From the IMG/VR virus record IMGVR_UViG_2585427785_000005: DNA of 18,927 nt; one strand, given 5' to 3'. Below, one piece after another: positions 386 to 18,674 of the stretch (its first letter is position 1; each line of letters starts with the position of its first letter). The DNA comes from a virus (lineage: Duplodnaviria; Heunggongvirae; Uroviricota; Caudoviricetes). Both the position numbers and the translations under genes were made by a program. The notes below the pieces were generated by a model. The model did not search any database, was not told the DNA's origin, and worked only from the letters and a program-made list of their open reading frames with translations.

Positions 386-555
386 GATCTTTCTTCCTCC
401 GTTGCGATTTCCAGATCTACAGCATCCTGCAGTGGCGCAATATACTCACTGAATTCCTGGATGTAGAACTGTGTGGTGACGGTCTTCCAGCCATTCGGCT
501 CCTGCTGTATCGAAGCATACCAGGCTATTTCAATATCGCTATGCTGCGGCAGCAT
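286..555 (-). pseudogene. tfa: tail fibre assembly protein (Tfa), C-terminal fragment, 5'-truncated
   Basis: C-terminus ...[39 protein letters not shown] parallels the C-terminus of the intact Tfa at 3240-3767 (...[34 protein letters not shown]). The N-terminal part is replaced by the promoter region of the opposite-strand methyltransferase. Confidence 0.7.
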
Positions 556-611
556 TTAACCCCTTGTAATTCATCGCCATAATTGATTTAATTCACAAAT
601 AAAACTATAAC

Positions 612-1280: not shown

Positions 1281-1285
1281 CATCC

Positions 1286-1435
1286 AACCGCAGCACGTTC
1301 TTGCTTAAGACGTGCTGCGGCATAATCCCAATGATTACTCCCTGACAGGGTTCGTAGGCCACTCAATATCAGGTGCAGTTGATGTATCAACACGGTTCAG
1401 TAACACCCGATACTTTTTCTAGGCTTCCACCACCA
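1286..1435. repeat. direct repeat copy B (~150 bp): tfa 3' remnant (last ~27 codons) plus perfect 11-bp-stem hairpin
   Basis: Hairpin CCGCAGCACGT-tcttgcttaag-ACGTGCTGCGG at 1288-1320. The minus strand encodes [27 protein letters not shown], the same Tfa C-terminus as copy A. Confidence 0.8.
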
Positions 1436-1436
1436 G

Positions 1437-1685
1437 CACGACAAGATGCCGCATACAGTGAACCAGTCAGTCCAGTTTTCAGACAACCAGTGCGTCACCT
1501 TTTTGAAGGCGCTTTAAAGCACGTTTTAATCCAGGTCGGCCTGTCCTTGTTCCGCTTAATTTATCTTCAAATATTTGTTCATATCCTGCACAAACAAGAG
1601 CGTTTCGTTGCAGATCTGTATTCTGGTCATTTGTTGATACCCTTACATAGCCAATCAGCACGCTGAATCTCCCGTCCAAAAGCAC
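1437..1685 (-). pseudogene. pin: Pin/Gin/Hin-family serine DNA invertase, decayed (N-terminal ~70 codons, two in-frame stops, 3' two-thirds deleted)
   Basis: Translation VLIGYVRVSTNDQNTDLQRNALVCAGYEQIFEDKLSGTRTGRPGLKRALKRLQKGDALVV matches the invertase N-terminus including the catalytic-serine region. It is followed by TGA where Pin has Trp, then KLD, a second stop, and degraded homology LVHCMRHLVVLVVEA that fuses into repeat B. The apparent native start is a GTG at 1659-1661. Confidence 0.85.
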
Positions 1686-1715
1686 AAATCATGCCATGCA
1701 GGCCAGAAACCGCCA

Positions 1716-1741
1716 TTATCTAAAACCTCGGTTTACGAGAA
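1716..1741. repeat. gix/hix-like recombination crossover site (right)
   Basis: TTATCTAAAACCTCGGTTTACGAGAA, a 26-bp imperfect palindrome matching the Gin/Hin/Pin crossover-site pattern as I remember it. It lies just upstream of pin and is inverted relative to the site at 4797-4822. Confidence 0.8.
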
Positions 1742-2674
1742 CTCGGCACAAGCGGGGAGAAAATACCGTTACTCAGTACAGCGAATACCTGGACTAATCG
1801 ACAAACATTCAGCGGTGGCCTTTCTGGTGAACTATCCGGCAATGCTTCTACAGCTGCAAAATTAAAAACTGCCAGGAAAATAAGCAATGTGGCTTTTGAT
1901 GGTTCCTCCGATATCACATTAAAAGCAAGTCATGTTGGTGCGTTTGCCTTAGGGAAAACAGGAAGCACCGTTGCGAATGATAAAGCAGTTGGATGGAACT
2001 GGAGTAGCGGAGCCTATAACGCAACTATTAGTGGTGCATCAACGTTAATTATTCATTTTTATATGGGAGAAGGAAGTTGTCCTGCAGCTCAGTTTCGGAT
2101 TAATTATAAAAATGGCGGTATTTTTTATCGTTCAGCCCGTGATGGTTATGGTTTTGAAGCCGACTGGTCCGAATTTTACACCACCACCAGAAAACCTTCA
2201 GCAGGAGATGTTGGTGCACTGCCGTTATCTGGTGGTCAACTGAATGGTGCACTGGGTATCGGAACATCCAGTGCTCTTGGCGGTAATTCGATTGTATTGG
2301 GTGATAATGACACGGGCTTTAAACAAAATGGCGATGGTAATCTGGATGTTTATGCTAATAACGTCCATGTTATGCGCTTTGTCTCCGGAAGCATTCAAAG
2401 TAATAAAACCATAAATATTACAGGGCGTGTTAACCCCTCGGATTACGGTAACTTTGATTCCCGTTATGTGAAAGATGTTCGACTTGGTTCACAGCAATAT
2501 TATGGAGTGAACAACTGGCAAACATGGAATTTCCAGTGCCCTTCAGGTCATGTATTGTCTGGTATTAATGTTCAGGATACAGGGTCTAACTCTGCCGATA
2601 ATATAGCGGGCGTTTATTACAGACCCGTTCAAAAGTATATAAATGGCACCTGGTATAATGTAGCGAGCGTTTAA
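1724..2674 (+). CDS. silent alternative side-tail-fibre C-terminal coding segment (promoterless, expressed only after inversion)
   Basis: The reading frame is open from inside the gix-like site ([13 protein letters not shown]...) through the track ORF 1889-2674 and ends ...[18 protein letters not shown]. The expressed stf C-terminus ends ...RPLQKYISGNWYNVEQA. Shares the GGNSIxLGDNDTG motif with the active stf. Confidence 0.8.
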
Positions 2675-2675
2675 T

Positions 2676-3209
2676 ATGATGCACTTAAAGAACATAAAAG
2701 CGGGTAATGCTAAAACACTGGAACAGTATGAGTTAACAAAGAAACACGGAGTTATCTGGCTTTACTCTGAGGACGGAAAAAACTGGTATGAGGAAGTGAA
2801 AAACTTTCAGCCAGACACCATAAAGATTGTTTACGATGAAAATAATATTATTGTTGCCATAACCAAAGATGCCTCCACACTTAACCCTGAAGGTTATAGC
2901 GTCGTTGAGATTCCTGATATTACCGCCAACCGGCGTGCTGACGACTCAGGTAAATGGATGTTTAAAGATGGCGCAGTCATTAAACGTGTATATACCGAAG
3001 AAGAGTTGCGCCTACAGACGGAAAACCAGAAAAAAATATTATTACAGCAGGCCAGAGAAAAAACGCAGTTCTGGCAAACACAGCTTACTTTGGGGATTAT
3101 CACTGATTCAGACAGACAGCAACTGATGAACTGGATGCGATACGTGCAACAGGTTGAGACAACTGATACCTCGGTTCTTCCTGTAACATTCCCGGAACCA
3201 CCAGAATAA
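2676..3209 (+). CDS. tfa: tail fibre assembly protein, alternative copy inside the invertible segment
   Basis: 177 aa starting [38 protein letters not shown], paralogous to the Tfa at 3240-3767. Its ATG overlaps the stop of the upstream segment. Confidence 0.85.
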
Positions 3210-3210
3210 G

Positions 3211-3234
3211 AAAAGGCCCGTACGGGCCTTAATT
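3211..3234. terminator. bidirectional intrinsic terminator between the convergent tfa genes
   Basis: Hairpin AAGGCCCG-ta-CGGGCCTT at 3213-3230, flanked by an A-run upstream and a T-rich stretch downstream. Confidence 0.55.
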
Positions 3235-3239
3235 TGTTG

Positions 3240-3767
3240 TTATTCTGGTTTCTGTGGCCATTCAGGCTTTGCAGTATCCACACGGCTGACCATAACGCTG
3301 TAGCGTTCCCATGATTCCAGTCGTGTGCGTTCCTCATCAGTTGCCATATTCAGTCTGACAGCACGTTCCAGCGGTTGAATCACAGACTCCGCTTCGGAAA
3401 GCAAAGCGGCTTTTTGTAACTCTGCCTGCTGTTGCAGTTCCTGTTTTGTATATTCCCGCTTTACTACTTTACCATCCAGAAACTTCCAGTTTCCCGAGAT
3501 ATCGGCGCGACGGTTGGCTGTTATATTCGGTAACTCAACAACACTTAACCCGTCAGGGTTAAGCATTGATACGTCTTTCTCAATACAACGAATAATCCCC
3601 TTCTGGTCATAAGCTATTTTTAAAGTATCATCCTGAAAGTTTTTTAATTCGTCATACCAGTTTTTACCGTCTTCTGTATATAGCCAGATAACGCCAGCTT
3701 TTTTCGTAAGCTGATACTGCTCAATGGTTTTGGGGTTTCCGGCGGTAATATTTTTCAGATGTTGCAT
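3240..3767 (-). CDS. tfa: tail fibre assembly protein
   Basis: 175 aa starting [30 protein letters not shown], with an AGGAGA Shine-Dalgarno sequence before the ATG at 3767. Sits immediately downstream of stf. Confidence 0.9.
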
Positions 3768-3782
3768 ATATTCTCCTGATGG

Positions 3783-6689
3783 CTATGCCTGTTCAACGTT
3801 ATACCAGTTACCAGAAATGTATTTTTGTAGTGGTCGTGACACCATCCAGTCATCTCCATCAACCTCACCAATAATTTGCAATCCTGTTGTCACATGACCA
3901 TTACCTGGTTCGCAAAGTCCTCCGCGATATAATGTGTCAGAACGTCTGCCTCCCAGACGCACATTTCTGATAAAAGAACTATTCAGGTAATCATTTAAGT
4001 TTGAACCCCAGCACCCACCAAATATATTTCCATCGGTGTTATAACGGACGCCACCCGCAATAAGAGCACCCGGTGAAATAAAGGATTTATCGTTCGGGTT
4101 AAAATACCATAAAGCATCATTACCTCCATCGCCACGCATATGAATACATGGAACCGGAAATCCATACTGTTCTGTCAGTAAATACCCAAAGCTGACCGCG
4201 CCGGGATAGCCCTGTCCATTGCGAATGGACAAGCCCTTAACTATCGGCACGTAATGACCACCAGGAGTGGGATTCCAGGCAAACTGCGTCTGAACAAAAG
4301 GCGCGGTGGCATTATTCAACTGGTCTGCAAATGCGCCACTTCCATCAGGAATTATTCCCTGATGAATATATGCAACCCGCTTATAAAAATCAGCAGATGC
4401 GGGTTGAAGCCCAAATGCCAGTTGTCCATTTGAATAGAATAAAAGGACACCGTCGCCGCCCTGTTTAATACCAGTGTCGTTATCTCCGAGAGTAATGGAA
4501 TTACCGCCCAGTGCGTTATCTGTACCAAGCGCCAGCCCACCATCAATTTTGGCCCCGTGGCTGACAGATATAGCACCTGTTCTCAGATTTATAGCGAATG
4601 GCCTTAATGGGCCGATATCACCGTTTTCGCCTTGTCCTTCAGCCGTCGGAATGAAATGAAGAAAATCTTCTGAACGACGGAAAATAAGACCGAAGGCATC
4701 ATTGAAAATTCGCAGCGCATTCACCGTGCCAATTTTCAGTTCTCCGGTCATTTTATCGCCGGAACGCTGAACGGCGTTACCAGCCTTGTTTACCGTTTCC
4801 TGTAAACCGAGGTATTCGATAACGGCGGCAACGGTCGATTTCGCAAGAATATCCCGCCCAACTTTTGTCAGGATTGCCAGACTGGCAACATCATTCCCCG
4901 TAAAATACGGAAACCTGTCTGCCGCAGTAGCAAGCCCGGCCAGCGCCGTCAGGGTGGCATCTTTCGGTTGCTTACCCGCAAGCGCGCTAGTCATGGTGGT
5001 CGCAAAATTCGGGTCGTTGCCCAACGCCGCAGCCAGCTCGTTCAGCGTATTCAGTGCGTCAGGCGACGAGTCCACGAGGGCAGCGATCGCAGCCATAACA
5101 TAAGCCGTGCTTGCGATTTGGGTATTATTCGTTCCCTGTCGCGCAGTTGGTGTTGTTGGCGTTCCGGTCAGTGCAGGACTATTTAAGGGCGCTTTCTTGT
5201 TCGTTTCACCCATTACCGCCTTAACCGCTTTTGGCGTTGCCGCCAGTGACTCGGAAGTGCTGTTGGTCGCACTGCTGAGCTGTACTATCCCCTTTTTCGT
5301 CGTGCTCGCATCCTCCAGCGCCACGGCGGATGCAATATCCTCTGCCCGTTTTGCTGCTGTCTCGGCGCGCGTTGCCGCGGATTCCGCCGTACTTTTGCTC
5401 TGAGCTGCCGCCGTCGCACTACCAGCTGCCTCTGATGCTTTCGTTGTTGCTGTCGTGGCACTACCTTTCGCTGCTGACGCTTGTCTGGTCGCCTCATCTT
5501 TTGAAGCAGACGCAGATGATGCCGATGACGCCGCTGAACTGGCTGACGATGCGGCTGCCGCCTTAGAGGAAGCAGCATTGTCTGCTGAAGTCTTTGCATT
5601 TGTTTCAGAGGTTTTTGCTGCAGAAGCAGACCTCGCTGCTGCAGTGGCTTGCTCAGTGGCTTTGCCAGCCTTCGTTGTGGCTGTTGAAGCGGATGATGCG
5701 GCGCTTTCTGCCGATTTTCCGGCGGCGGTGGCACTGGCTGAGGCCTGCCCGGCACTTGTTGACGCGGCACTGGCAGATAATGCAGCCGCTGTTTTTGAAC
5801 CTGCCGCAGCTGAGGCGCTCTGTCCCGCTGCTGTTTCAGAAGACTTAGCGTTCGTCTCGGACGTTTTTGCCGCCTTCGCGGAATTTCCTGCCGCCGTTGC
5901 CGAGGAAGCTGCACTACTGGCACTTGATGATGCATTCGTTTCTGAAGATTTCGCTGCCTCTTTTGAGGCCGCCGCACCCCGTGCCGAGGTGGCAGCTTCT
6001 GACGCCTTCGTGGTCGCTGTGGATGCAGAAGTGGCTGCCGATTTTTGTGATGCTGCGGCATTCGTTTCTGACGTTTTCGCGGCACTGGCGCTGGTAGCTG
6101 CCGCGCTTTTTGATGACTCTGCAGCAGCAGCACTTTTTGCTGCTTCACGGGCCTTTGTCGATGCCGTTCCTGCGCTGGAAGACGCTGACTGAGCCGACGA
6201 CGCGGCCTGTCCGGCTGACGTGCTGGCGGCACGTGCTGAGGCTGCAGCATCGGTTGCATGAGTTGCCGCCTCGCTGGCTGATGCACTGGCATCGCTGACT
6301 GATTTTTTCGCGGCTGCCGTATTCTGTGCAACCGCGGAGGCGTTACGTGACACCTCTTCTACCATCTGCTCAAAGCGGCGCAGTGCCTCCGGTCGGACAT
6401 CATCCTCCGTCATGGCACCGAGAAAATCATTCAGCGTACCTGGTCTGGAACCTTCATAGACGGTAATGGTCCCGGCATGTGAAGGCGGAAAACCTTCAAC
6501 CAGCAGGGTGACGCTGTACTGACCATGCTCAACATCCATGCTGTAACGTCCGGCTTCATCCGGATTTTCAGAGGCCACCGTGTTCACCACCACCGTGCTG
6601 CTGGTTCGTCTGGCCTTCAGCACAATGGTGCAGTTCTGTACTGGTTTTCCTGTGCCATCTTTAAGCACGCCAGAAATTTTTACTGTCAT
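3783..6689 (-). CDS. stf: side tail fibre protein (968 aa)
   Basis: N-terminus MTVKISGVLKDGTGKPVQNCTIVLKARR...GRYSMDVEHGQYSVTL is lambda Stf-like, followed by a long Ala/Ser/Thr-rich repetitive shaft. The gix-like site lies inside the coding sequence (encoding VIEYLGLQE) at the constant/variable junction. C-terminus ...QKYISGNWYNVEQA. Confidence 0.9.
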   Translation of the reverse strand: MTVKISGVLKDGTGKPVQNCTIVLKARRTSSTVVVNTVASENPDEAGRYSMDVEHGQYSVTLLVEGFPPSHAGTITVYEGSRPGTLNDFLGAMTEDDVRPEALRRFEQMVEEVSRNASAVAQNTAAAKKSVSDASASASEAATHATDAAASARAASTSAGQAASSAQSASSSAGTASTKAREAAKSAAAAESSKSAAATSASAAKTSETNAAASQKSAATSASTATTKASEAATSARGAAASKEAAKSSETNASSSASSAASSATAAGNSAKAAKTSETNAKSSETAAGQSASAAAGSKTAAALSASAASTSAGQASASATAAGKSAESAASSASTATTKAGKATEQATAAARSASAAKTSETNAKTSADNAASSKAAAASSASSAASSASSASASKDEATRQASAAKGSATTATTKASEAAGSATAAAQSKSTAESAATRAETAAKRAEDIASAVALEDASTTKKGIVQLSSATNSTSESLAATPKAVKAVMGETNKKAPLNSPALTGTPTTPTARQGTNNTQIASTAYVMAAIAALVDSSPDALNTLNELAAALGNDPNFATTMTSALAGKQPKDATLTALAGLATAADRFPYFTGNDVASLAILTKVGRDILAKSTVAAVIEYLGLQETVNKAGNAVQRSGDKMTGELKIGTVNALRIFNDAFGLIFRRSEDFLHFIPTAEGQGENGDIGPLRPFAINLRTGAISVSHGAKIDGGLALGTDNALGGNSITLGDNDTGIKQGGDGVLLFYSNGQLAFGLQPASADFYKRVAYIHQGIIPDGSGAFADQLNNATAPFVQTQFAWNPTPGGHYVPIVKGLSIRNGQGYPGAVSFGYLLTEQYGFPVPCIHMRGDGGNDALWYFNPNDKSFISPGALIAGGVRYNTDGNIFGGCWGSNLNDYLNSSFIRNVRLGGRRSDTLYRGGLCEPGNGHVTTGLQIIGEVDGDDWMVSRPLQKYISGNWYNVEQA
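4797..4822. repeat. gix/hix-like recombination crossover site (left), inside stf
   Basis: TTCCTGTAAACCGAGGTATTCGATAA. The reverse complement of the right site is TTCTCGTAAACCGAGGTTTTAGATAA, so the two are inverted repeats sharing the core AAACCGAGGT. Confidence 0.8.
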
Positions 6690-6700
6690 ACTTTTCCACC

Positions 6701-6737
6701 AATAAAAAAAGCCCGCAGCAGTGACGCCACGGGCTTC
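6701..6737 (-). terminator. intrinsic terminator downstream of lom
   Basis: On the minus strand the stem AAGCCCG/CGGGCTT is followed by TTTTTTTATT. Confidence 0.5.
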
Positions 6738-6840
6738 AGGACAGTGTAACTTTACGTTTCCTCAAACGCAGTTCACCCCATAAGGTGGATGAACCTGCGT
6801 ATCATAACAATATTTACAGAAGATAAATCGGCGTCTGTTG

Positions 6841-7440
6841 TCAGAAACGGTATCCGATACCAACAATAAATGCATCCGTTCGCCAGTCGCCACTACCGGA
6901 ACCTTCATAAGCAAGGTCAATGGTCACGGATTCGGTCGGATTAAACTGCACGCCAGCCCCCCACGCCAGAGACGTGTTGCTGTGGCGACCGTCATCACTT
7001 CCGGTCAGCACATCGTGCGTTTTCCCCTTGTTGTCAGTTACGCGGAGATAATCCCCGGAGAAAGTCGACACACGGCTGTAAGCCACACCCACCATCGCAT
7101 ACGCGCTGAACCATTCATTCACGCGTACAGACGGCCCCGCCATCACGCTGAACCAGCGGTTACGCACGGAATCTTCATGCCAGCGGGTATCGCTGTAGCG
7201 CGTTTTTTGCTCATCCTCAGCATTGGCATAACTGAAGGACGTAATCAGCCCCAGCGCGTCCGTAAACTCATAACGGTATTTCACGTTAATCCCGTTCAGA
7301 TCATCACTACCGGGAACGTTCGTCGAGGCATGGAGATACCCCGCGCTCAGCGTGGACTGATGTTCTGCTGCACTCGCTGGCGTAGCAGCGGCGACCTGCC
7401 AGACTACTGCGGACAAAATAACAGCACATAATTTACGCAT
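6841..7440 (-). CDS. lom: Lom/Ail/OmpX-family outer membrane protein
   Basis: 199 aa with a signal peptide MRKLCAVILSAVVWQVAAATPASAAE and a C-terminal ...GIGYRF beta-barrel ending. Sits between J and stf as in lambda. GAGAGGT Shine-Dalgarno sequence before the ATG. Confidence 0.85.
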   Translation of the reverse strand: MRKLCAVILSAVVWQVAAATPASAAEHQSTLSAGYLHASTNVPGSDDLNGINVKYRYEFTDALGLITSFSYANAEDEQKTRYSDTRWHEDSVRNRWFSVMAGPSVRVNEWFSAYAMVGVAYSRVSTFSGDYLRVTDNKGKTHDVLTGSDDGRHSNTSLAWGAGVQFNPTESVTIDLAYEGSGSGDWRTDAFIVGIGYRF

Positions 7441-7461
7441 AATTACCTCTCGCTTTTCTGC

Positions 7462-7488
7462 AATAAAAAAGGCGCCATTTCTGGCGCC
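7462..7488 (-). terminator. intrinsic terminator downstream of J
   Basis: Hairpin GGCGCCA-gaaa-TGGCGCC followed by TTTTTTATTG on the minus strand. Confidence 0.55.
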
Positions 7489-7507
7489 CGTATCTGGGTT
7501 ATAAAAT

Positions 7508-10261
7508 TCAGCTAATCGTGATGCCTGCAGTGGCTTTCTTCATCACCACAACCAGCAAATCGCTGATACTTGCTGTGGGATACCAGTTATTTACCAGCCA
7601 TGCTGACACCGAAAACTCCAGTGTCATGTGACCGTGACCGGCAGGCATATCAATAACACCACTGTAAATCAGCGTATTATCCAGCGCGGTACGGTTATAA
7701 ATTTCAGCACCGTTTTTCCGCACTATCAGACGGCATGAGGAGTAAATATCAGTATGCTCTTTCTCATGTTTAGCGCCGCTGAATGCCACCGCCGGAATAA
7801 CAATCTGCCGGTCAAACGGCTGATCGTCATAAACCCTGACGGTAATGGTTCCTGATGGCCACCGCTCCGGTGCACGGGAGTCCCGGGGGAAAGCTTTGCC
7901 CACTGTTTTAACGAGATCGCCTTCAATCTGGTTCGCGGACAATTTTCCCAGAACCCGACAGTTCTCGTTAATCGTGACGTTGTTGAGCGTCCCGGAGTTC
8001 GCATTCACGTTACCGCTGATATCGGCATTTTTCGCCGTCAGCCGCCCGTCCGGTGTCAGGGAAAATGCCGGAGGATTACCGCCGCTGGTAATGGTGGGAG
8101 CCGTCAGATATTTCAGGAACACTTCATTCATAAATATCTGATCGCCCTGACCAACAAACATCGGCTTTGTGTTGCCATTCGCAGGATTAATCATCGCAAT
8201 CCTGTCTGCCGCCAGCAGCACCTGACTCTGCATTCCTGCTGGCGTATTCTCAATACCGGCACCGATACCCGCAATATAAAGGCGTCCGTCCTGCATCTGC
8301 TGCAGTTTCACGGCCCACATGCTGTTCAGGTTATTATTTGTATCAACCTGAACTTTCTGTATCTGCTGGATTGCCGCACTCTGATTTTCCAGTTTTTTAT
8401 TGACGGTCTGCGTGATTTCATTGCTGACATTCGTAATGGACGTCCTGATTTCAGCCAGGTCCGGCGCAAGCTGACCGTTATCAATCTGCGTCCACAGCTC
8501 CTGGGCCAGATGTGTTTTCCCGATTTCTCCTTTGAAAAAATCCAGGTAACCTTCCGCATCATCGCTCGCCCGACCGACAGCCTCCACGAATGCCGATTTG
8601 CCGACTGTATTCACACTGCGGATATAAAAATAATAATCATGGCCCGGCTTGATATTGATACTGGCAGCTATCCAGTACAGCGCCGAGCCAAGATAGCGGG
8701 CTGCGGTTTCAACCTGCCTGATATCCGCAATCCGCTTTTCTGAGAACCAGAACTCAAACTGTACCGTCGGATCATAAACGGCAAGATACGGCGTGGCGGT
8801 TATCTGAAAATAGCCCGGCGTCAGCTCAATCCGCGACGGCGCTGCCGGTGCGGCAATCCGGAACGATACCGATGCCGGATCGCCCTGCTGCCCCCACGCA
8901 TTTGCCGCCCGGACTGTCAGCCTGTAGTTTCCCAGCGCCAGTTGCGTGAAGCGGTATGTGGTTTCCGTCGTCCTGGCCGTGCTGACCAGCCGCTCACTGC
9001 CGTCATCCGCTGCCACGGTCAGGCGAAGCAGGAAGCTCACGCCCTTCACCACCTTCGGCGTGTCCCAGCGGGCCAGTACCTGATATTCCCCGCTGTCTGC
9101 GGTGACTTCGGCAGTCAGGTGCTGCACCGCTGGCGGCGTGACACCATTCACCGTGCCGCTCTGGTCGCCGTCAAAGTGCGCCCCGTTATCCACGATGGCT
9201 TCTTTTTCCGGTACATGCTGCACGGCGGTGATGGCATACGTGCCGTCATCGTTCTCACGGATACTCACGCAGCGGAACAGGCGCTGGCGCAACGTCGGCA
9301 GCTTCAGCCCCCATACGCTGTATTCAGCAACGCCGTCAGGAACACGGCTCACTTTCACCTTCACGCCGTCGGTGACGGACTGAACCTCCACGCTGACCGG
9401 ACTCCCCTGCCCGTCAACCAGGCTTATCAGCGTGGTGCCGGAAGATGGCAGCGTGATTTCACGGTCGAGCGTCAGCGTCCGGGTCTGGCTGTTTACCGCC
9501 AGCACGCGCCCGCCGGTGCGGATACCGGCATAGTCATCATCGCAGATTTCAATGACATCGCCCGGTACATGGCGAAGCCCTTCGGCACCCACGCTGAAGT
9601 CCACGGTCTGCGTTTCCAGCAGTTCTGTTTTAATCAGCCACAGCCCGGCGCGGTGTGCCTGCCCCCGGCTGGTACAGCCAAAAGCATCCATCTTCGTGAC
9701 GTTACGACCGTAACGGGCAATGGCCTGCGTGTCCTCCACAAGCTCTGTCGCCGTCTCCCAGCCGTTATTCGGGTCAATCCAGTTCACCTCAACGGCATTA
9801 TGGCGGTCCTTCAGGGCGCTGAAGCTGTAGCGGAACGGCGCACCATCATCCGGCATCACCACATTACTGCGGTTATAGGTCCACACCTTATCCGATGGCC
9901 GGTCCTGCACAAACGTCAGCGTCTGCCCGTTCCATACCGGCATACAGCGCATCGCCGAGCAGAAATCACTGAGCACATCCCACGCCTTGCGCTGCGTGGT
10001 CAGGTACGCATTACAGGTAATACGCGGCTCCGTGCCACCAAAGCCATCCGGCACCGACTGGTCGCAATTCTGGCCGATGACATACAGCGCCCATTTATCC
10101 ACATCCGCCGCACCAAGACGTTTCCCCATGCCGTAGCGCGGATGGGTCAGCATATCCCACAGACACCAGGCCATGTTGTTGCTGTATGCCGGTTTAAACG
10201 TTCCGTCCCAGATACCGCTGTACAGTTCATGATGCCAACCTGAAACGGCAGTGTTTCCCAC
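7508..10261 (-). CDS. J: tail tip / host specificity protein J, C-terminal ~900 aa (5'-truncated remnant with an open 917-codon frame)
   Basis: Large ORF in the lambda J position (upstream of lom and stf). The frame is open only from about 10285. The true N-terminal third of J and all head and tail-shaft genes are absent. Confidence 0.8.
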
Positions 10262-10452
10262 CGCCCCGGGGTATAAGACGACTCTTTAGGAAGGTAATAA
10301 TGTTTATTGGCCCACTGAACTGTCGTCAGTGGAACAGGAATAATGAGAGATAAAAGCCCTGTAGCTATCGCACCGGCTGCATTAGCTGCCTTCTGTGCGT
10401 CTGAAATCATCGATCCACCCGCCCACGTTTTCACCGGCCTTAGCTGCAACAT
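10147..10452 (-). pseudogene. A: terminase large subunit (gpA), N-terminal ~75-codon fragment; homology ends near 10213
   Basis: ...[34 protein letters not shown] parallels the lambda gpA N-terminus ([33 protein letters not shown]). After that the frame reads through J-derived sequence in the wrong frame to a stop. Confidence 0.75.
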
Positions 10453-10930
10453 TGGAGGCTTTCGCGATTTCAGTTTTCACCACATCAAGGTGTGATGGTG
10501 AAATGTCCGGATATTTACGCTGTAATGTCAACGGCACACGCACAAGTATCCCCGAAATCTCCTGTGCCACACGTTGCAGAATGAAGGTAAATAGTTCAGT
10601 TTCCAGCACCACTCCGTCTTCACGGGCATTTTTCAGTTCCTGCGCATCTGCCTGCGCTTTTGTGAGCCGGTAGCGTTCATAGTCAATGGTGCCGGGTTGT
10701 AAATCTGACTCCGCTGCCGCACGCAAATCGGCCAGTTCTTTGCGGAGCTTTTCGTTTTCGATATCAGTTTCCCTCTGCGCATACCACTGAATTGCCATGG
10801 CAGTATCAAATACAGATTCAATGCCCTTACTGCCTTTGGAGACGCAAGGGAGCCCCTGAGACTGCCAGCGTTCAATCGTCCGCGGGTCCACGTTAAAAAT
10901 TTCGGCAAGCCTCTTTTTATTAACCTTCAT
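10382..10930 (-). CDS. nu1: terminase small subunit (Nu1-like, 182 aa)
   Basis: [28 protein letters not shown]...[29 protein letters not shown] closely parallels lambda Nu1. Start taken at the ATG at 10930 rather than the track start at 10975. Confidence 0.9.
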
Positions 10931-10939
10931 AGAACAACT

Positions 10940-11120
10940 CATTATCAAATACAAGGCCCGACATGAAAACGCCAAAAAAAGGCATTTTCGGACACTTTCA
11001 TGTCGGACATTTATGAATGCAATATTAAAAAAAACAAAAAGTTATATTCGAGAAGTACCGACACGATTTTCCCTGAAAAATTTTCATAAATAGTGAAAAA
11101 CCGCGAGGTCGCCGCCCCGT
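10940..11120 (-). promoter_or_regulatory. cos site: cosN (cohesive-end sequence at 11106-11117) plus cosB-like repeated TerS-binding elements
   Basis: The minus strand reads GGGGCGGCGACCTCGCGGTTTTTCACTATTTATGAAAATTTT, almost identical to the left end of lambda cos as I remember it. Between cosN and the Nu1 start there are three copies of a TGTCCGAC/TCGGACA-like element (10947-10998). Confidence 0.85.
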
Positions 11121-11340
11121 AACGATCTGGATCACCGGAAAGGACCCGCCAACGACTTTCGCGTGCAGGCATTAAAAATTTTGCAGTTCCATGCCTAGTT
11201 GAAACCTCGATTTCTATAACATCCAATTTTGTAAATTTAGATATAGCTCAACTTTTCCCAATGTTTTCAAGTGTATAAAAACAATTGGCGTTACGCCATA
11301 ACACTATACTTAGGATAAGTAAAGATTTTAAGGAGTTTTA

Positions 11341-12408
11341 ATGAGTCAACATCAATATTATCCACAGCTGAAATGGAAGCCTGCTGAATATGAATCTCTG
11401 ATGCTTTTAGATCAAACTACGCTCTCTGGTTTTACTCCGATCATTACCATTCCAGACATAGACTGGGATTATGAAAACGAATGCTACAAGAAGAGTTTGA
11501 GTTCTTACTTATCTGACTTCGGTATTAACCTTGCGGCATCCTGGAAAGCCAATCGTCCTGTTTTGCTGGATGTTAAATATTTAGATAAACATGGTTCGAG
11601 CCGCCATCATCCTCTAGATATGTGTATCCAAGATGCTAGAGTAAATGGTAAGGAAATTATCCCTGTTGTTTCTCCCGCATATTCAACAAACTATATACAT
11701 GCTGTTCAACGCAACTTAATCAATGGGCTCGCTATATCTATCACCCCCCAGACATGGCACCAATTCACAAGTCTGGTTAACCACTTAAATATTCATCCTA
11801 GTTTAATTGATGTAATCATTGATTTTGGAGATATTCAAAACGCAACTGATAGTTTAAAACAACAAGCATTAAGCATGGTCAACACATTATCAGGCCAAGC
11901 TCCGTGGAGAAACTTGATTTTATCTTCAACCGCATACCCGGCATCACAGGCAGGGATACCGCAACATCAAGTCCATCATATTCCGCGCCATGAATACGAT
12001 CTTTGGATGTACGTAGTACAGAATTTTAGCAATGGAAGAACGCCAAGTTTTAGTGATTATCCCACCGCTAGCTCTACCATTACGAGCGTAGACCCACGCT
12101 TCATGTCTCAGTATGTCTCAGTGAGATATTCGAACGATACCTCATGGATCTTTGTAAAAGGTACCGCAGTTAAAGGAAATGGATGGGGCCAAACTAAAAA
12201 CTTATGTACTACCCTTGTTAGTTCGCCAGAGTATCAAGTCTTTGGCTCCAAATTTAGTTGGGGGGATGATTACATTTACCAAAGATCATTAGGCGCTAAC
12301 AAATCTGGCGGCTCTAAAGAATGGCGTAAAGTTGCACATACGCACCATATTACGTTAGTCGTGAGACAGCTTTATTGGTTGGCGCAGACTCAGCCTGCCA
12401 AGCCTTAA
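11341..12408 (+). CDS. hypothetical protein, 355 aa (moron gene; possibly beta / sce7725-like family, unverified)
   Basis: Intact ORF in low-GC DNA with AAGGAG 7 nt before the ATG and an AT-rich promoter-like region at 11220-11335. No catalytic motif I can name by eye. Confidence 0.7.
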   Translation: MSQHQYYPQLKWKPAEYESLMLLDQTTLSGFTPIITIPDIDWDYENECYKKSLSSYLSDFGINLAASWKANRPVLLDVKYLDKHGSSRHHPLDMCIQDARVNGKEIIPVVSPAYSTNYIHAVQRNLINGLAISITPQTWHQFTSLVNHLNIHPSLIDVIIDFGDIQNATDSLKQQALSMVNTLSGQAPWRNLILSSTAYPASQAGIPQHQVHHIPRHEYDLWMYVVQNFSNGRTPSFSDYPTASSTITSVDPRFMSQYVSVRYSNDTSWIFVKGTAVKGNGWGQTKNLCTTLVSSPEYQVFGSKFSWGDDYIYQRSLGANKSGGSKEWRKVAHTHHITLVVRQLYWLAQTQPAKP

Positions 12409-12970
12409 CTTTCCAGCCTACGCGTTTCTTTAAGGCTGTTCTGACTTCAAGCCTGAGATTCGCTATTGGAATATTTTCCGCAATAATATTCCATAACTCA
12501 AATCGGGGCTTGCTTTTGATTCCTTTGGAATAGCCCCATCGTTCAAGTACGTCGATACATTCATCTTTCCAAAGCAATTGAGCGAGCATCAATGTGTCAT
12601 GGTTTCGATTAAGCTTTTCTCCACGCATGTGCTTTATAAGAATGGCGCCTTTTGGCCCAACAGAAACCGTTTTAACGCCCCACCAACCTGGGATTAACTT
12701 TAATGCTCCCTCAAGGTGTTTCTCAGCTACGACAAGAGTAACCTTGTCCATTACAGAAGAATAATGCTTGATTTGAAGAGGCAAACGCTCCAAAGAGTCA
12801 TATTCACTTTTGAGCTCGTACCCGTGTATAACACCATTTATTACAGCAATGTCTGCTCTACTGGCGCCAAGGGATATGGAAAATTCATCGACCACAAGGC
12901 AGTCTGGATCTAAATGCGATTCTTTCAAAAGCTTATGATGCACCGCGAACCTAACATCTTGATCTTTCAT
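12350..12970 (-). CDS. hypothetical protein, 206 aa, with a PD-(D/E)xK nuclease-like core (possibly sce7726-like, unverified)
   Basis: Intact ORF with AGGAGA before the ATG and a perfect TATAAT (minus strand, 12999-13004) upstream. The N-terminal region has D40-x11-E52-L-K54 in a hydrophobic context (RADIAVINGVIHGYELKSEYD). Confidence 0.7.
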   Translation of the reverse strand: MKDQDVRFAVHHKLLKESHLDPDCLVVDEFSISLGASRADIAVINGVIHGYELKSEYDSLERLPLQIKHYSSVMDKVTLVVAEKHLEGALKLIPGWWGVKTVSVGPKGAILIKHMRGEKLNRNHDTLMLAQLLWKDECIDVLERWGYSKGIKSKPRFELWNIIAENIPIANLRLEVRTALKKRVGWKVKAWQAESAPTNKAVSRLT

Positions 12971-13321
12971 GACTTCTCCTTACTCCCTCCGTTATTGAAT
13001 TATAGCGCACTGCATTTTACTGCATTTGAGAGATTTGACCACTTCAATCACAAAATGCTTATCTGCAGCAACAAGATTCATAGCCATACGACTATGGTGA
13101 TTACCTTTTGTCTGGAAAACTGACCATTCCACGAAGATCAGATAGGTCTATAGAATCTTGGTTTGTCATAGCGTTCGTCTTACTTTGAGATGAACCTTTG
13201 CTGCATAGGAGATCAGCCCGTCAAGGCTCACCAGCACTAACTGACTACTCAAAGGCTCATTCCAAAGGGTTTGGTTCGACGTGGTTGAGTGCGCTGCGGT
13301 GCGCGGTGAAATACCTGTACA

Positions 13322-13349
13322 AAAATGCCCCGCATCTGCGAGGCATTTT
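13322..13349 (-). terminator. candidate terminator after Rz (bidirectional AAAATGCC...GGCATTTT stem)
   Basis: Hairpin with an A/T-run stem about 38 nt downstream of the Rz stop. Confidence 0.4.
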
Positions 13350-13386
13350 CCTGAAAGTCACGTATTAAATTTCAGTGAAATTAAAA

Positions 13387-13860
13387 TTATTTTAAGCACT
13401 GCGTCCTGATGTACTCCTGCAGGTAGTTGACCTGAGCGGTTATCTTGTCGATTCCACTTCGGAGACGGTAATAATTGAGTTCAGCATCTGCTGTAAGTCT
13501 TGGGCTTTCTCCATCGCCCATGCTGCTGGCTCCGGTCGTTGACTTTGCACAGGTGGCGGCGACTTGCAGGCGCTTACGCCCAGCAGAAACATCAGCACGA
13601 AGACTTTCGATAGTCGCGTTAGCATCAGCAAGCTCCTTTGTGTATCTGGCGTCGAGTTCTGCTACATCACGCTGACGCATCTGCATGTCAGTAATTGCCA
13701 CGTTCGCCAGCTTCAGTTCTCTGGCATTTTTGTCGCGCTGGGCTTTGTAGGTAATGGCGTTATCACGGTAATGATTAACAGCCCATGACAGGCAGACGAT
13801 GGTGCAGATAACCAGAGTATAAATAATCGCTGCGACTCTGCTCACTGATCTATCCCCCAA
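13387..13860 (-). CDS. Rz: i-spanin Rz
   Basis: 157 aa with an N-terminal transmembrane segment ([18 protein letters not shown]) then a coiled-coil-like region, closely lambda Rz-like (...[26 protein letters not shown]...). Overlaps the endolysin stop. Confidence 0.85.
13440..13631 (-). CDS. Rz1: o-spanin Rz1 (lipoprotein) embedded in the +1 frame of Rz
   Basis: Embedded ORF with a lipobox-like LLGVSAC followed by a proline-rich stretch [13 protein letters not shown], as in lambda Rz1. Confidence 0.6.
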
Positions 13861-14375
13861 CAGGCTAATGCGCTTTCCTGGTCACGACGAATAACCTGTC
13901 CATAGCAGTTATTTGAACGTATGCGGCAATCGCGCCCACCATCTTTTATCCACCAGCGAATCGCCTCGCATGCGCCCTTACGATCACCGGCATTCAGCCG
14001 CTTATAAAACGTCGACGGGAAACACTTACCGGGGCCAATGTTATAGGGACAGAATGACGCTATACCCGCTTTCTGTGGTTCGGTCAGTGGTACTTTAATA
14101 TTGCGCTCCACCCATGCCAGCGCCTTATCACGTTCAATAGCGTTAACCTGGTCGCATTTTTCCTTCGACAGCTTCATTCCCGGTATGACGGGCTTACCAT
14201 CCACCATTGTGGCACCACGACAGATGGTCCATATACCGGAACCATCGCGGTATGCCGTAGTGTGGTTACCCTCTTTTTCATCCAGAAACTGGTCAAGTAT
14301 TTGAGGAGCAGACGCGCCTGCAGCAATCAGCGCCAGAACAGCAGCTGACAGGCCGTATTTGATTTTTGCGCTCAT
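13842..14375 (-). CDS. R: SAR endolysin (T4-lysozyme-type muramidase, phage 21 R-like)
   Basis: 177 aa with an N-terminal signal-anchor-release region [24 protein letters not shown] and a catalytic E-x8-D-x5-T arrangement ([16 protein letters not shown]). Confidence 0.92.
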
Positions 14376-14430
14376 GGATATTTATCAGGATGCTACCAAT
14401 GAAAGATACTGGAAAGCCAACTGCAAAAAG

Positions 14431-14745
14431 CTAACAACCCGTAATCGAGTTATCAGAACTGTTAATTTTTATGGTATACCGCGCCTCTGAACAGGGGCGC
14501 GTTTCTGGCAACAGCTCGTCCCCTTCACATAACCCGGCAGCAACATCCAGGAAGACCTGTCTGATGCTCCTTCTGGCTGCTGCCTCATAAAACTCCAGCG
14601 CGGCACCTTCAACACGGTCCAGCGAGATGTCCAGGTCAAAAATTTCACCGTCAAAGCGTTTTTTGTCCCGTAACGCTAAAGTTACCGTAACTTTATTCTC
14701 AAAATTGCGGATCCCTTTCACAATCAGTTCATAGTTTTGAGTCAT
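14431..14745 (-). CDS. hypothetical 104-aa protein between holin and endolysin (YdfR / DUF1327-like by position and size, from memory)
   Basis: ORF begins 4 nt after the holin stop, suggesting translational coupling. Acidic, no transmembrane segment. Confidence 0.55.
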   Translation of the reverse strand: MTQNYELIVKGIRNFENKVTVTLALRDKKRFDGEIFDLDISLDRVEGAALEFYEAAARRSIRQVFLDVAAGLCEGDELLPETRPCSEARYTIKINSSDNSITGC

Positions 14746-14749
14746 TGAA

Positions 14750-14965
14750 TTACTCTCCCCGTGCAGCCTTACGACGGTCCTCTCTGATTTTGAAATACAG
14801 GTTAGTCAGATATGTCAGCAGCCCAAACAGCAGACTCCCCAGCACGCCTATTGCCGCCCACTGAGACGGGGAAACCCTGTCCAGCAACTGCAGGAACCAG
14901 TAGCCCGTTCCCACCGCTGACGTGGTGTATGACACACCTGTTGTGATTTTTTCCATCTGGTACAT
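14750..14965 (-). CDS. S: class II holin / pinholin (phage 21 S-like, ~71 aa)
   Basis: [71 protein letters not shown] has two transmembrane segments and a charged C-tail. Dual Met starts (M1, M4) are typical of holin/antiholin pairs. The longer track ORF to 15043 runs through the upstream terminator. Confidence 0.85.
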
Positions 14966-14995
14966 ACCCCATCTCCCGTTATCCGGAAGCTGACA

Positions 14996-15031
14996 ACAAT
15001 AAAAAAAGCCACCAGTTAAGTACTGATGGCT
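14996..15031 (-). terminator. intrinsic terminator between the esterase gene and the lysis cassette
   Basis: Minus strand AGCCATCAG-loop-CTGGTGGCT followed by TTTTTTTATT. Confidence 0.5.
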
Positions 15032-15115: not shown

Positions 15116-16969
15116 TTATGATGATGCCGGTGCATTTATCTCCAGCACCAGACTTTCTATCTCAACGCCATACGCTGCATTTTTTGTAACATCCGTCAGC
15201 GTCAGCGCATTCAGCCCCAGTGTCAGACTGTCTTTTATGACCTGGAATGCCGGGCCAGCCACTCCATTCAGTTTCGGAGTAACCGTGACACTGCCGGCGG
15301 TGAACACCAGCTCCAGCGTCTGCCAGTCGTTACCGTAATCGCCGAACTCCCCCAGCTTCGTGTTTCCGGCTTTCCTGTGATGCATCAGATTCAGTTTGCC
15401 GTCTGTGGTCTGGGTGAAGAACGACATCAGGAACGGGTTACCAGTCCCGGTCATCGCCACGACGTCAGGTAACGCTACATCGGTATACAGATAAATTCCC
15501 AGACCGAACTGGTTGTTGGTCAGTGCGCCTGACAGTCGAAACTTACAGCTCAGTCTGCCACCCCGTGTCAGCAGGGAGACTGCGTCATCCACCGGATGCA
15601 TCAGGGACCAGGTTTTATTGCTCTGCTTGGTGATCTTAAATACACCATCTGACAACTGAATTCCGCCATTCTTAATGCTCCAGCCCTGCGCAGCAGCATC
15701 TCCGGCTGTCGGCAACAGGGAGATTGTGCGTACGGATGCATCTTCAGACGGCCCCGATGGCGTGTCGCCGCCGGGCGAGGGTTTGATTTCCGGTGCCTTA
15801 CCACTAATGAAGGCTAAGGTGCGACCGGCTACGTTCAGAATAGCAGTTGCCATACGATCGGGAATAATGCCACGACGCGCCCATGAGCTGAAATGCGTCG
15901 GGCGATTTGATGATACCCAGTTTTTGTTCGTTCGGGATGCCGAACCGTAATAACCAGACCCGGCAATATCAGGATCTTCTGACGGGTTGTTTGTCGGTGT
16001 ATTAACTCCGCTACCATCGGTCATAAAGGGAACAAAATAAATCTGCTGGGATTCTTTACCTTTATATGCACCATATACCACTTCATATTGCGTACCGTGT
16101 TCTTGTTTCCACGCGTATGTCGTGTCGCCACAAATTCAGGGGACTGATGCCGGACTTCCACCGTGACACTGCGCCGCCAGCCCGGCAAGGTCAGCACGGA
16201 ACTGCTGTACCATTGCAAGAAATGCTGCTGGCTGCTGGGCGTAACTGGCATTCGTCATATCGAATTCCCCCTGCATCCAGCATATCGCCAGCAAAACGTT
16301 TTTCGGGTTTTTCTGCAATGCTGCCTTCGTGCGGAAAAGCAGATCCTGATATAACGGCTTACCCACTCCCCAGCGAGCCGAATCCTGACTGGCCCCCGTG
16401 GACTCGCTGAATGTCCCCTCCGTGCCCTGGGTGAATGCCGAACCACCACGACAGCATGGTACCAGCAGGATCCCCGCGTTATTAGGGATATACGGAAGCA
16501 GTTTTTTGGCAATATGTAAGCCCTGTCCGACACAGCCGTACTGCCCTTTGCTCAGGTCAGCCCGGGGATGATTAATCGTACTCATATCCTGAACATCATG
16601 CAGACAATGGTCAGCAGGAATGATGTCGTTAAATACGCATACTTCACCACCGGGAGTCACTGTGTTACGACGGGCCAGTTGCTTAATGCGCGGATGGGGC
16701 GCATCGTATGAATCCGGAAGCGGAAGCCCTTCACCGTAAGCCATGGCATTGGATTGCCCGGCCAGTACGATGACGTAGTACCACTCCGGCTCAGTTGCAC
16801 CACTGACGACCACATCACCTTCTGCTGCAATCGCCTGCATCAGGGTATAAGGGGTTATGGCCACCGGACTACCAAACGGCTGCCAGCCCTCTTTCAGTTT
16901 ATGTGTCAGCTTTTCCGCAAGATCTGACGGCGACGCCGCCCTGACAACATCATAGTGTTTAAATGCCAT
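15116..16969 (-). pseudogene. NanS-p-like sialate O-acetylesterase (DUF1737 N-terminus plus SGNH-type esterase plus C-terminal domain) interrupted by an in-frame TGA at 16136-16138
   Basis: N-terminus MAFKHYDVVRAASPSDLAEKLTHKLKEGWQPFGSPV and a GQSN esterase motif (YYVIVLAGQSNAMAY). The two track ORFs (16136-16984 and 15116-16081) are in the same frame, separated only by one TGA and 18 sense codons. Confidence 0.75.
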
Positions 16970-17162
16970 GGTTCTTTCCACCATCTGAAAAATGATTCTT
17001 TAAAATACCTGACATGTAATACAGAAAAAACACAAAACCATACCTTAAATAAAAACCTCATCATCAAGCAGATATGCATGGATAAACTACAAGACGAGAT
17101 ATAAACCACCCTGCATTTAAATAAACAATAAACAACATCAGAAAAATAATTCTGCTCTATGG

Positions 17163-17189
17163 TTTACAATCAAAAATATCATTTATACT
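17163..17189 (+). promoter_or_regulatory. candidate sigma70 promoter for the 17230 ORF
   Basis: TTTACA-15 nt-TATACT lying 40 nt upstream of the ATG, in a very AT-rich divergent intergenic region. Confidence 0.3.
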
Positions 17190-17229
17190 TTTCAGAACAT
17201 CACCAGCAAGGCATAAACAAGGAAACTAA

Positions 17230-17565
17230 ATGAAGTGGATTGTGATTGATACAGTTATCCAGCCATCATGCGGAATATCTTTTTCAGTCATATGGAGTAA
17301 AATAAAATTAATAATCTGGTATCAATCGGATGCTTTCTTACCTCCTGAAAGTATATTTACACTGACTCACACAGGCATCATGCTCAATAACAAAGTGCTA
17401 CCTGTAACCATTTACAACGTAGTACCATTCAATAAAACATTCTGGAATTTAATCAAAAACAGCCAGGAATGCCCTACAAATACAGATAACGTATTGAATG
17501 AATGCTTTAATAACCGTTGCACTCTGCAAATATGTCCTTATGGGCTAAAACAACAAAGTCCATAA
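17230..17565 (+). CDS. hypothetical 111-aa protein, AT-rich moron ORF
   Basis: AAGGAAA Shine-Dalgarno sequence 7 nt before the ATG. Very low GC, five Cys in the C-terminal half, no recognisable motif. Opposite strand to the surrounding late genes. Confidence 0.35.
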
Positions 17566-17584
17566 GGAGTTTACTCACATCTGA

Positions 17585-17790
17585 CAAAATCAATATAAAC
17601 AGCCCCTCCGGAGAGGGGCTGGAGAGTGGCGCTATGTGCCATTGCATGGTGCCGGGTGCCTCCCGGTGAATTCAGTACCAGCACCTGAATCCGCGATTAT
17701 CCCATATACCTACTCGCTGATTACCCCTCCGCACAGGGGGATTCACCATGCGAAATTTTTTAACAAACTTCCCGCCGGCCAGACAATAAT
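17585..17790 (-). ncRNA. E1: candidate promoter, ~160-nt structured transcript and intrinsic terminator (minus strand)
   Basis: -35 TTGTCT (17786-17781), 18-nt spacer, -10 TAAAAA (17762-17757). The 5' GCAUGGUG pairs with a 3' CACCAUGC. Terminator hairpin AGCCCCTC-tccg-GAGGGGCT (17620-17601) then a T-rich tail. Confidence 0.35.
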
Positions 17791-18057
17791 CGCCAGCCTG
17801 AATTATGAGCAACGTGGCATTTTACGGGAAAACTGTTTTCTGCAGTAAAAAGGCCCGCCGGAGCGAGCCTGGAAGGATAGCGGTCATGTGATGCCGGTTT
17901 CCCGGTAACTCAGCATCGGTATCTGAGTCAACGTTTTCTCTACTGGGTCATTTCCGATACGTTCCGCCTTCCGGCAGACTTTCATCACGTCAGAAAATAT
18001 AGCACCCTGAGTAACAGGACAGTACTCAGAATTCAGGAAACTGTGACACATCCTGCA

Positions 18058-18255
18058 CAGAAAAGCCCCTCCGGAGAGGGGCTGAAGTATAGCCTAATTT
18101 CTGTCTGTCGCATGGTGCCAGGGGACTCCCGGTAAATTCAGCCTGTCTACTGAATTTGCATGTTCTCTGGATCATACACTTTGCCAGATGCCCCGCCGCT
18201 GAGGGGGATTCACCATGCGATGTAATTTTTAACAAATTCTCCGGCAGCCAGACAA
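18058..18255 (-). ncRNA. E2: diverged tandem copy of E1 with the same promoter, 5'/3' pairing and terminator
   Basis: -35 TTGTCT (18255-18250), 18-nt spacer, -10 TAAAAA (18231-18226). 5' CGCAUGGUG pairs with 3' CACCAUGCG. Hairpin 18083-18064 followed by UUUUC. Confidence 0.35.
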
Positions 18256-18512: not shown

Positions 18513-18589
18513 TGGACCGCCATCGAGAACTCGAACCCCGCGCAACCAGCTTCGAAGGCTGGCGCTCTATCCCGATGAGCTAATGGTGG
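18513..18589 (-). tRNA. tRNA-Arg (anticodon UCG)
   Basis: Cloverleaf folded by hand: acceptor CCACCAT/ATGGCGG with one mismatch, D-stem GCTC/GAGC, anticodon stem CCAGC/GCTGG with loop CTTCGAA, T-arm CGGGG-TTCGAGT-TCTCG, encoded CCA. Confidence 0.75.
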
Positions 18590-18598
18590 TATGTGATA

Positions 18599-18674
18599 TG
18601 GTGGCCCTTGCTGGATTTGAACCAGCGACCTGGCGATTATGAGTCGCTCGCTCTCACCACTGAGCTAAAGGGCC
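18599..18674 (-). tRNA. tRNA with CAU anticodon (Ile2/lysidine-type or Met; ileX/ileZ-like)
   Basis: GGCCCTTTAGCTCAGTGGTGAGAGCGAGCGACTCATAATCGCCAGGTCGCTGGTTCAAATCCAGCAAGGGCCACCA, 76 nt. Perfect 7-bp acceptor stem, T-loop TTCAAAT, encoded CCA. Close to the E. coli ileX sequence as I remember it. Confidence 0.85.

Follow-up and report, generated by a model that had tools for sequence, protein, structure and literature searches.

A beta and cII-like gene pair lacking gop in the Rz-cos interval of a phage-21-like prophage: a candidate two-gene anti-phage module

Two genes lying tail to tail in AT-rich DNA occupy the interval between the lysis genes and the cohesive-end site (cosN) of a phage-21-like lambdoid prophage. 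The questions raised by this locus are what the cassette does for its carrier and whether it belongs to a known system. The window analyzed here is the 18,927-nucleotide (nt) viral stretch IMGVR_UViG_2585427785_000005 (Caudoviricetes), taken at its full length. A sequence-only reading had proposed that the two genes form an undescribed defence or abortive-infection module composed of a nuclease-like protein and a partner with no nameable motif. The comparisons reported below identify the pair as distant homologues of the beta and cII proteins of P4, that is, as a predicted gop-less form of the gop-beta-cII defence system, and show that the two genes are passed on together in many phyla, in most cases without a third gene. 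The genes are located as follows.

11341 to 12408, plus strand: beta family gene (355 residues, ATG start), predicted TIM-barrel protein
12350 to 12970, minus strand: sce7726 / Phage_P4_cII family gene (206 residues, ATG start)
12350 to 12408: 59-nt antiparallel overlap of the two 3' ends, covering beta residues 337–355 and cII-like residues 187–206

Results

The minus-strand gene encodes a predicted nuclease of the cII family

The 206-residue protein scored 184.1 bits against the NCBIfam model sce7726_fam (NF033832; cut-off of 70) and 106.7 bits against the PADLOC model 'cll'. RefSeq names its gene 'sce7726 family protein'. All of its close homologues carry a precomputed match to PF26915 (Phage_P4_cII), and BLASTP aligned the protein with P4 cII (E of 1e-18, 27% identity). 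In the AlphaFold2 model (pLDDT of 90), strands at residues 25–32, 37–44, and 48–54 precede a helix and then a fourth strand. The C-terminal side consists of a helical domain and a disordered tail (residues 188–206). In the PD-(D/E)xK core, ordered alpha-beta-beta-beta-alpha-beta, D lies on the second strand and (D/E)xK on the third, as in the model. Residues E29, D40, E52, K54, and Q66 were 100% conserved in 72 distinct family sequences from many phyla. The core fold and the E...D...ExK arrangement are likewise those of MmcB-like SPO1766 (3dnx), Can2, NucS, and type II restriction enzymes. According to the model, the N-terminal domain adopts the PD-(D/E)xK nuclease fold, and nuclease activity is predicted. 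The sequence-only reading had singled out D40-x11-E52-x-K54 as the hallmark of this fold and had likened the pair to families that include sce7726. Both proposals hold, with the three residues invariant in the 72 members and the fold in agreement.

Distant sce7726-like nuclease domains (approximately 27–30% identity over residues 14–145) also occur as stand-alone proteins, without a beta gene, in approximately 240 Staphylococcus phages and approximately 30 large Bacillus phages.

The plus-strand gene encodes a predicted TIM barrel of the beta family

The 355-residue protein matched the Pfam family Beta_protein (PF14350) over model positions 1–342 of 342 with a score of 190.4 bits (cut-off of 27), and RefSeq names its gene 'beta family protein'. 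BLASTP aligned it over its full length with P4 beta (E of 3e-7, 22% identity). Among PADLOC models, the best scores were obtained with PD-Lambda-2_C (109.6 bits for PDLC03984 and 87.5 bits for PDLC03983), above that of the P4 'beta' model (37 bits, E of 3.5e-10). The protein was modeled as a TIM barrel. Among 67 sequences, the residues with at least 90% conservation include D77, D161, D239, R216, H336, and several tyrosines. Several conserved residues are located at or near the C-terminal ends of predicted barrel strands, which suggests an enzyme or a ligand-binding pocket of unspecified kind. The partner that had seemed to lack any nameable motif thus has both a family and a predicted fold, and the proposed resemblance to a beta family is borne out by the full-length PF14350 match.

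Searches of all PDB chains with profiles of the beta and cII families returned nothing significant. An NCBIfam search gave no match for the window beta or for seven beta homologues (one from Sorangium); an sce7725 model may be absent from that collection or may describe a different subfamily. Pairs given the names sce7725/sce7726 by NCBI annotation occur in a Leptospira island and in a Pseudomonas integrative mobilisable element (IME). The 206-residue protein passes the sce7726 cut-off, and RefSeq calls its partner a beta family protein. In the literature, these pairs are mentioned just in passing, as hypothetical genes on islands or mobile elements.

The cassette holds the part common to gop-beta-cII and PD-lambda-2

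In P4 (NC_001609), cos is followed by gop (247–648, plus strand), beta (651–1718, plus strand, 355 residues), and cII (1746–2540, minus strand). The cassette resembles this locus in the length of beta (355 residues in both), in the orientation of the genes, beta pointing away from cos and cII converging with it, and in its position in a cos-adjacent cargo hotspot of a temperate element. It differs by the lack of gop, by its carrier, which is a lambdoid prophage rather than a P4 satellite, and by the length of the cII-like protein (206 residues versus 264 in P4). In addition, P4 beta and cII are separated by a 27-nt gap with an annotated terminator, whereas the window genes overlap by 59 nt. 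The best tblastn match of P4 Gop in the window (E of 0.006) was to a coiled coil at 14692–14802, not adjacent to beta, and no small transmembrane open reading frame (ORF) was found between cos and Rz.

The P4 system is the one described by the DefenseFinder model Rst_gop_beta_cll and the PADLOC gop/beta/cll models (Rousset et al., 2022; PMC9122126). It protects E. coli from phages lambda and P1 (PMC9122126) and kills cells upon expression of the phage gene orf184 (bioRxiv 10.1101/2023.04.06.535777). Gop, a 133-residue membrane protein, is reported to be toxic in P4 without beta (Ghisotti, 1990, as cited in PMC9122126). In a DefenseFinder-based survey, Rst_gop_beta_cll was a rare, three-gene system restricted to Proteobacteria (bioRxiv 10.1101/2024.10.26.620412).

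PD-lambda-2 comprises a HigB-like protein (A), an Xre-M78 peptidase (B), and a beta-like protein (C) (Vassallo et al., 2022; PMC9519451). Its beta-like component is required for defence but not for toxin neutralization (PMC9519451). The window beta is closer to this component than to P4 beta, as judged from the PADLOC scores. No A or B gene was found upstream of the window beta, where the 223 nt between cosN and the start codon hold no co-oriented ORF of at least 25 codons. Many environmental loci of the PD-lambda-2 type also have a convergent, overlapping cII. Four independent searches begun at PD-lambda-2 B homologues each led to HigB, peptidase, and beta genes followed by a convergent Phage_P4_cII gene overlapping by 50 nt, in the vicinity of type I restriction-modification, Fic, SocA, KAP/STAND NTPase, and recombinase genes.

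Without gop and without the A and B genes, the cassette falls outside gop-beta-cII and PD-lambda-2 as defined and holds the part common to both. The term 'undescribed' does not fit it, since both proteins are homologous to components of these validated systems and are named in RefSeq.

Homologues of PD-lambda-2 B numbered more than 7000 at E of 1e-20 or lower and were approximately 65% identical between candidate-phyla-radiation (CPR) bacteria, Scalindua, and Gammaproteobacteria. This similarity across phyla suggests a recent and wide horizontal spread. No E. coli entry was present among the 120 matches listed in the B homologue search (at least 7035 proteins, mostly environmental), which was aimed at the original ECOR42 PD-lambda-2 locus. 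An E. coli locus with PD-lambda-2 architecture, designated L093 (NZ_CP123310), was found by distant blastn. At this locus (1619–6168), the gene convergent with beta, at a distance of 264 nt, encodes a 549-residue DUF6119/TIGR04141 'sporadically distributed' protein, which may be an alternative partner of beta.

The two genes are inherited as one interlocked unit

A scan with one genome per species identified 454 loci with a relative of cII, of which 80 were fetched and analyzed. The loci were chosen by cII similarity, and their ORFs were called and searched with profiles built from our own alignments. A beta gene was present beside cII in 78 of the 79 evaluable loci, in full in 77 and as a fragment at a contig end in the remaining one (L008); one locus could not be evaluated. 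The two genes were convergent in all 80 loci, the window, L001, and P4 being counted in. In 75 of 78 loci, an overlap of the 3' ends was present (median of 53 nt, range of 11 to 158 nt), and the relative frame never varied. The sequence-only reading had recognized the convergence and had missed the overlap.

The distance between the first bases of the codons for two invariant residues, cII R183 and beta H336, was exactly 39 nt in 68 of the 80 loci, from Pseudomonadota, Bacillota, Myxococcota, Acidobacteriota, Gastranaerophilales, and CPR bacteria. It was 78 nt in the enterobacterial clade of the window, owing to one extra 13-codon block, and 350 nt in P4, an outlier. Where the spacing is 39 nt, each gene encodes its protein's tail on the strand opposite the codons for the partner's conserved C-terminal helix, and there is no room for a terminator between the genes.

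In approximately 58 of 77 loci, no gene was tightly coupled upstream of beta. Thus, the bare pair is the commonest form. A phmmer search among the 80 loci detected Gop in P4 only, and the PD-lambda-2 A and B genes were located directly upstream of beta in 11 loci, including L080. Together, these results indicate that the pair behaves as a single hereditary unit in many phyla, mostly without a third gene. Mean pairwise identity was 29% for beta and 43% for cII, indicating a faster divergence of beta, in a comparison that is biased by the choice of loci according to cII similarity.

The pair was found next to integrases, recombinases, insertion sequence (IS) elements, in prophages, in one IME, and in defence islands. 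In Rac-SA53, it is located in the nin region beside hok/mok and is annotated as 'CII phage-like' and 'beta'. It is also present in the Gordonia phages DumpsterDude and Powerball and in the Mycolicibacterium phage Mycofy1. In Photorhabdus and Xenorhabdus loci, the pair directly follows the Rz gene, as in the window. In all phage contexts seen, cII had the direction of the phage operon upstream and beta the opposite one.

Two loci call for separate mention. In L009 (Xenorhabdus koppenhoeferi, 6001–9409), the only evaluable locus of its kind, no beta gene was found within 2.8 kb downstream of cII. In L085 (DumpsterDude, MT024859, 4001–4615), the sce7726 homologue (224 bits against the family profile) is unannotated, and a 72-residue ORF on the opposite strand is annotated instead. 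This mis-annotation is probably due to the overlap of the true gene with the beta gene.

The cassette occupies a cargo site and has conserved upstream blocks

The boundaries of the cargo site and the putative expression signals are listed below.

10382 to 10927, minus strand: Nu1, terminase small subunit, left boundary of the cargo site (PF07471, 269 bits)
11106 to 11117, minus strand: cosN, with the lambda cohesive-end sequence GGGCGGCGACCT, read directly
11216 to 11340, plus strand: conserved block upstream of beta (TTAGATaTAGCTCAA...TTTTCA...GTATAAAA), presumed promoter region, containing AAGGAG
12971 to 13065, minus strand: conserved block upstream of the cII-like gene, with AAGGAG (12976–12981), TATAAT (12999–13004), and TGGTCA-16-TAAAAT (13014–13041)
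13321 to 13349, minus strand: hairpin terminator (13-bp stem and U tract), 38 nt past the Rz stop codon (-23.5 kcal/mol, z = -4.3)
13387 to 13860, minus strand: Rz spanin gene, right boundary of the cargo site (PF03245, 141.7 bits)

Lysozyme and P21-type holin genes, identified with Pfam, lie beyond Rz. The cassette begins approximately 40–100 nt to the right of cosN, at the far right of the phage chromosome. Position 1 of the phage 21 record OL657228 aligns with approximately 11117. Nu1 and the cos region are 94–97% identical in DNA to phage 21, and the phage-21-type cos homology stops at approximately 11155. GC content is 0.355–0.435 across 11000–13200, versus approximately 0.49–0.52 in the Nu1 and Rz/R flanks. 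The interval between Rz and Nu1 in related E. coli prophages carries bor/iss, TonB-like, or other small genes in place of the cassette. The Rz-cos interval is a variable cargo hotspot. The location between the lysis genes and cosN, the AT-richness of the DNA, and the presence of an accessory-cargo hotspot, all proposed from the letters, are in keeping with these data. The cassette shares its insertion site, AT-rich DNA, and own expression signals with lambda bor, iss, and other Rz-cos morons; bor and iss are single lipoprotein genes for serum resistance, and their proteins are unrelated to those of the cassette.

The block comprising cos, the cassette, and the lysis genes (11077–14999) is 99.8% identical to that of an otherwise different prophage, and 127 of 5426 complete E. 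coli genomes carry the cassette with at least 99% identity. It has been kept in the window although the rest of the prophage is heavily deleted. A DNA search of 50,697 phage records returned matches to the flanks and none to the cassette. No convincing transposon-like repeats, direct or inverted, flank the cassette. An Rfam scan detected no family in the cassette; the matches in the window, to tRNAs and STnc100, are located elsewhere.

Both ORFs are intact, and each ATG is preceded at 5 nt by the Shine-Dalgarno sequence AAGGAG (11331–11336 on the plus strand and 12976–12981 on the minus strand, by direct reading), as the sequence-only reading had noted. That reading had also assigned the genes their own promoters. 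A sigma-70 consensus scan of the region gave 4 matches versus 6.1 expected in shuffled sequence, and no site in the beta upstream block (11216–11340). Approximately 70–100 nt upstream of both genes are nevertheless conserved across five genera in unrelated contexts, as seen in alignments with Edwardsiella, Klebsiella, Pantoea, and Pectobacterium loci that have no other flank in common. As judged from its sequence, the hairpin downstream from Rz insulates the cassette from non-antiterminated transcription out of the lysis genes. The existence of own promoters is therefore supported by the conserved upstream blocks and the post-Rz terminator, and not by the promoter scan. No terminator or stable RNA structure was predicted in the 59-nt overlap.

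Discussion

Our reading, of moderate confidence, is that a phage-21-like lambdoid prophage carries the cassette as a horizontally mobile, self-contained pair of genes acting against phages or by abortive infection. This proposal is based on the P4 and PD-lambda-2 experiments, on the nuclease fold, on the mobile-element and defence-island contexts of the pair, and on the faster divergence of beta. In a lysogen, the pair would act autonomously. The cII-like nuclease would be the effector, cutting DNA, and the fast-evolving beta protein would be a sensor or regulator that restrains or licenses it, a role matching the control of Gop by beta in P4 and the requirement for beta in PD-lambda-2. This division of labor between a nuclease effector and a beta regulator is proposed with less confidence than the reading as a whole. 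With no terminator between the genes, the two transcripts would run into each other. The balance between the two proteins would probably be set by convergent transcription and antisense pairing of the 3' ends, and it would be hard, because of the overlap, to lose one gene without damage to the other.

Several observations weigh against this proposal. Identity to the P4 proteins is only 22% (beta) and 27% (cII), and the known toxic component of the P4 system, Gop, is absent from the window. In the E. coli locus L093, the HigB, ImmA/IrrE peptidase, and beta genes are present without cII, and the published PD-lambda-2 clone extends only 396 bp past the beta gene. Thus, cII is dispensable there, and beta need not act via cII. 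The beta protein matched no specific enzyme family, the rate comparison carries the sampling bias indicated above, and the sigma-70 matches did not exceed those of shuffled sequence. The regulatory role of the overlap is purely inferred, and the constraint of dual coding alone would preserve the spacing after its origin. Finally, we found no publication in which a two-gene beta-cII locus was tested for defence or toxicity.

The pair might instead be an addiction or stabilization module, akin to toxin-antitoxin systems, which would only promote retention of its carrier and play no anti-phage role. With the genes interlocked, the antidote gene is unlikely to be lost by itself, and the pair accompanies integrases, recombinases, IS elements, prophages, and an IME. 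It adjoins hok/mok in Rac-SA53 and survives in a heavily deleted prophage, and gop and beta are regarded as a toxin-antitoxin pair in the P4 literature (PMC9122126). We nevertheless consider this explanation unlikely, since both related systems that have been tested, gop-beta-cII and PD-lambda-2, give phage resistance, and since the genes are convergent rather than co-transcribed as in type II toxin-antitoxin operons. A single module could act in both addiction and abortive infection.

An equally low probability is given to a function serving the phage itself, either as a late-lytic nuclease acting on host or competitor DNA or as a pair tuning the lysis-lysogeny decision, a role suggested by the historical name cII, for clear-plaque type II. 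The cII-like gene is oriented as the late lysis operon, so that antiterminated late transcription would read through it and proceed antisense through beta. Co-orientation of cII with the upstream operon is seen in the window and in L014 and L018 (after Rz), in DumpsterDude (after lysis genes), in Rac-SA53 (after nin-region genes), and in P4 (after int), and lone sce7726-like nuclease genes occur in the lytic Staphylococcus phages and in the Bacillus phages mentioned above. However, most of the 80 loci are not obviously located in phages, Rz is followed by a terminator ahead of the cassette, and a conserved block of its own lies upstream of the cII gene. Moreover, P4 grows without these genes, which are non-essential according to Rousset et al. 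(PMC9122126).

We regard as very unlikely a DNA repair or modification pair in which an MmcB-like nuclease and a TIM-barrel enzyme acting on DNA or nucleotides would benefit the host under DNA damage. Least probable of all, and hardly credible, is a decaying, inert remnant of a three-gene gop-beta-cII locus that has lost its toxin: Gop is absent and the surrounding prophage is defective, but both ORFs are intact with all family-invariant residues, the two-gene form is the majority across phyla and gop the rarity, and the cassette is at least 99% identical in the 127 E. coli genomes.

Returning to the anti-phage module, its distribution in Pseudomonadota, Bacillota, Myxococcota, phages of Actinomycetota, and CPR bacteria allows a broader proposal, which is tentative and which we would sooner expect to fail than to stand. 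The interlocked pair may be an ancient autonomous immune module, from which gop-beta-cII and the cII-containing PD-lambda-2-like loci would derive by addition, on the beta side, of lineage-specific toxins (Gop and HigB/Xre-M78, respectively). The 39-nt interlock would then be a functional switch, operating by convergent transcription or antisense pairing, that couples the nuclease to its regulator and makes the pair inseparable. No paper describing the two-gene core or its conserved overlap was found in the literature.

Our comparisons suggest a simpler element shared by the two validated defence systems, namely a predicted TIM-barrel protein and a predicted PD-(D/E)xK nuclease encoded by tail-to-tail overlapping genes. 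This pair is far more widespread than either system. Detection rules for the named systems reportedly demand gop or the HigB/peptidase genes, and rules of this kind would miss the bare pair. The E. coli cassette of the window, compact (1.9 kb) and naturally devoid of gop, offers a test case for the identity of the effector, for sensing by beta, and for the role of the overlap. Should the pair be inert alone, the add-on toxins would do the killing and the core would be regulatory.

Other features of the window

The prophage is defective, its head genes and most of its tail genes being deleted (3783–10452). Nu1 and approximately 100 codons of the terminase large subunit (10147–10452) abut a 917-residue ORF for the tail-tip protein J (7508–10261), which is followed by lom (6841–7440) and a tail-fibre gene (3783–6689). 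A SAM-dependent methyltransferase-like ORF (612–1280, 222 residues) is located beside tail-fibre and tail-fibre-assembly genes (1889–3209).

Upstream of the lysis region, the minus strand carries two copies of the small RNA STnc100 (approximately 133 bits each), a tRNA-Arg(tcg), and a tRNA with a CAT anticodon (17591–17779, 18055–18248, and 18513–18674). A nanS-p-like esterase gene is apparently split by an in-frame stop codon into 16136–16984 (DUF1737 and SASA) and 15116–16081 (DUF6645), both in the same frame; its equivalent in L001 is a single ORF of 647 codons. A second AT-rich island (16800–17600, GC content of 0.32–0.39) contains a gene for an IraM-like anti-adapter (17230–17565, plus strand; NF007393, 162 bits) and is probably another moron.

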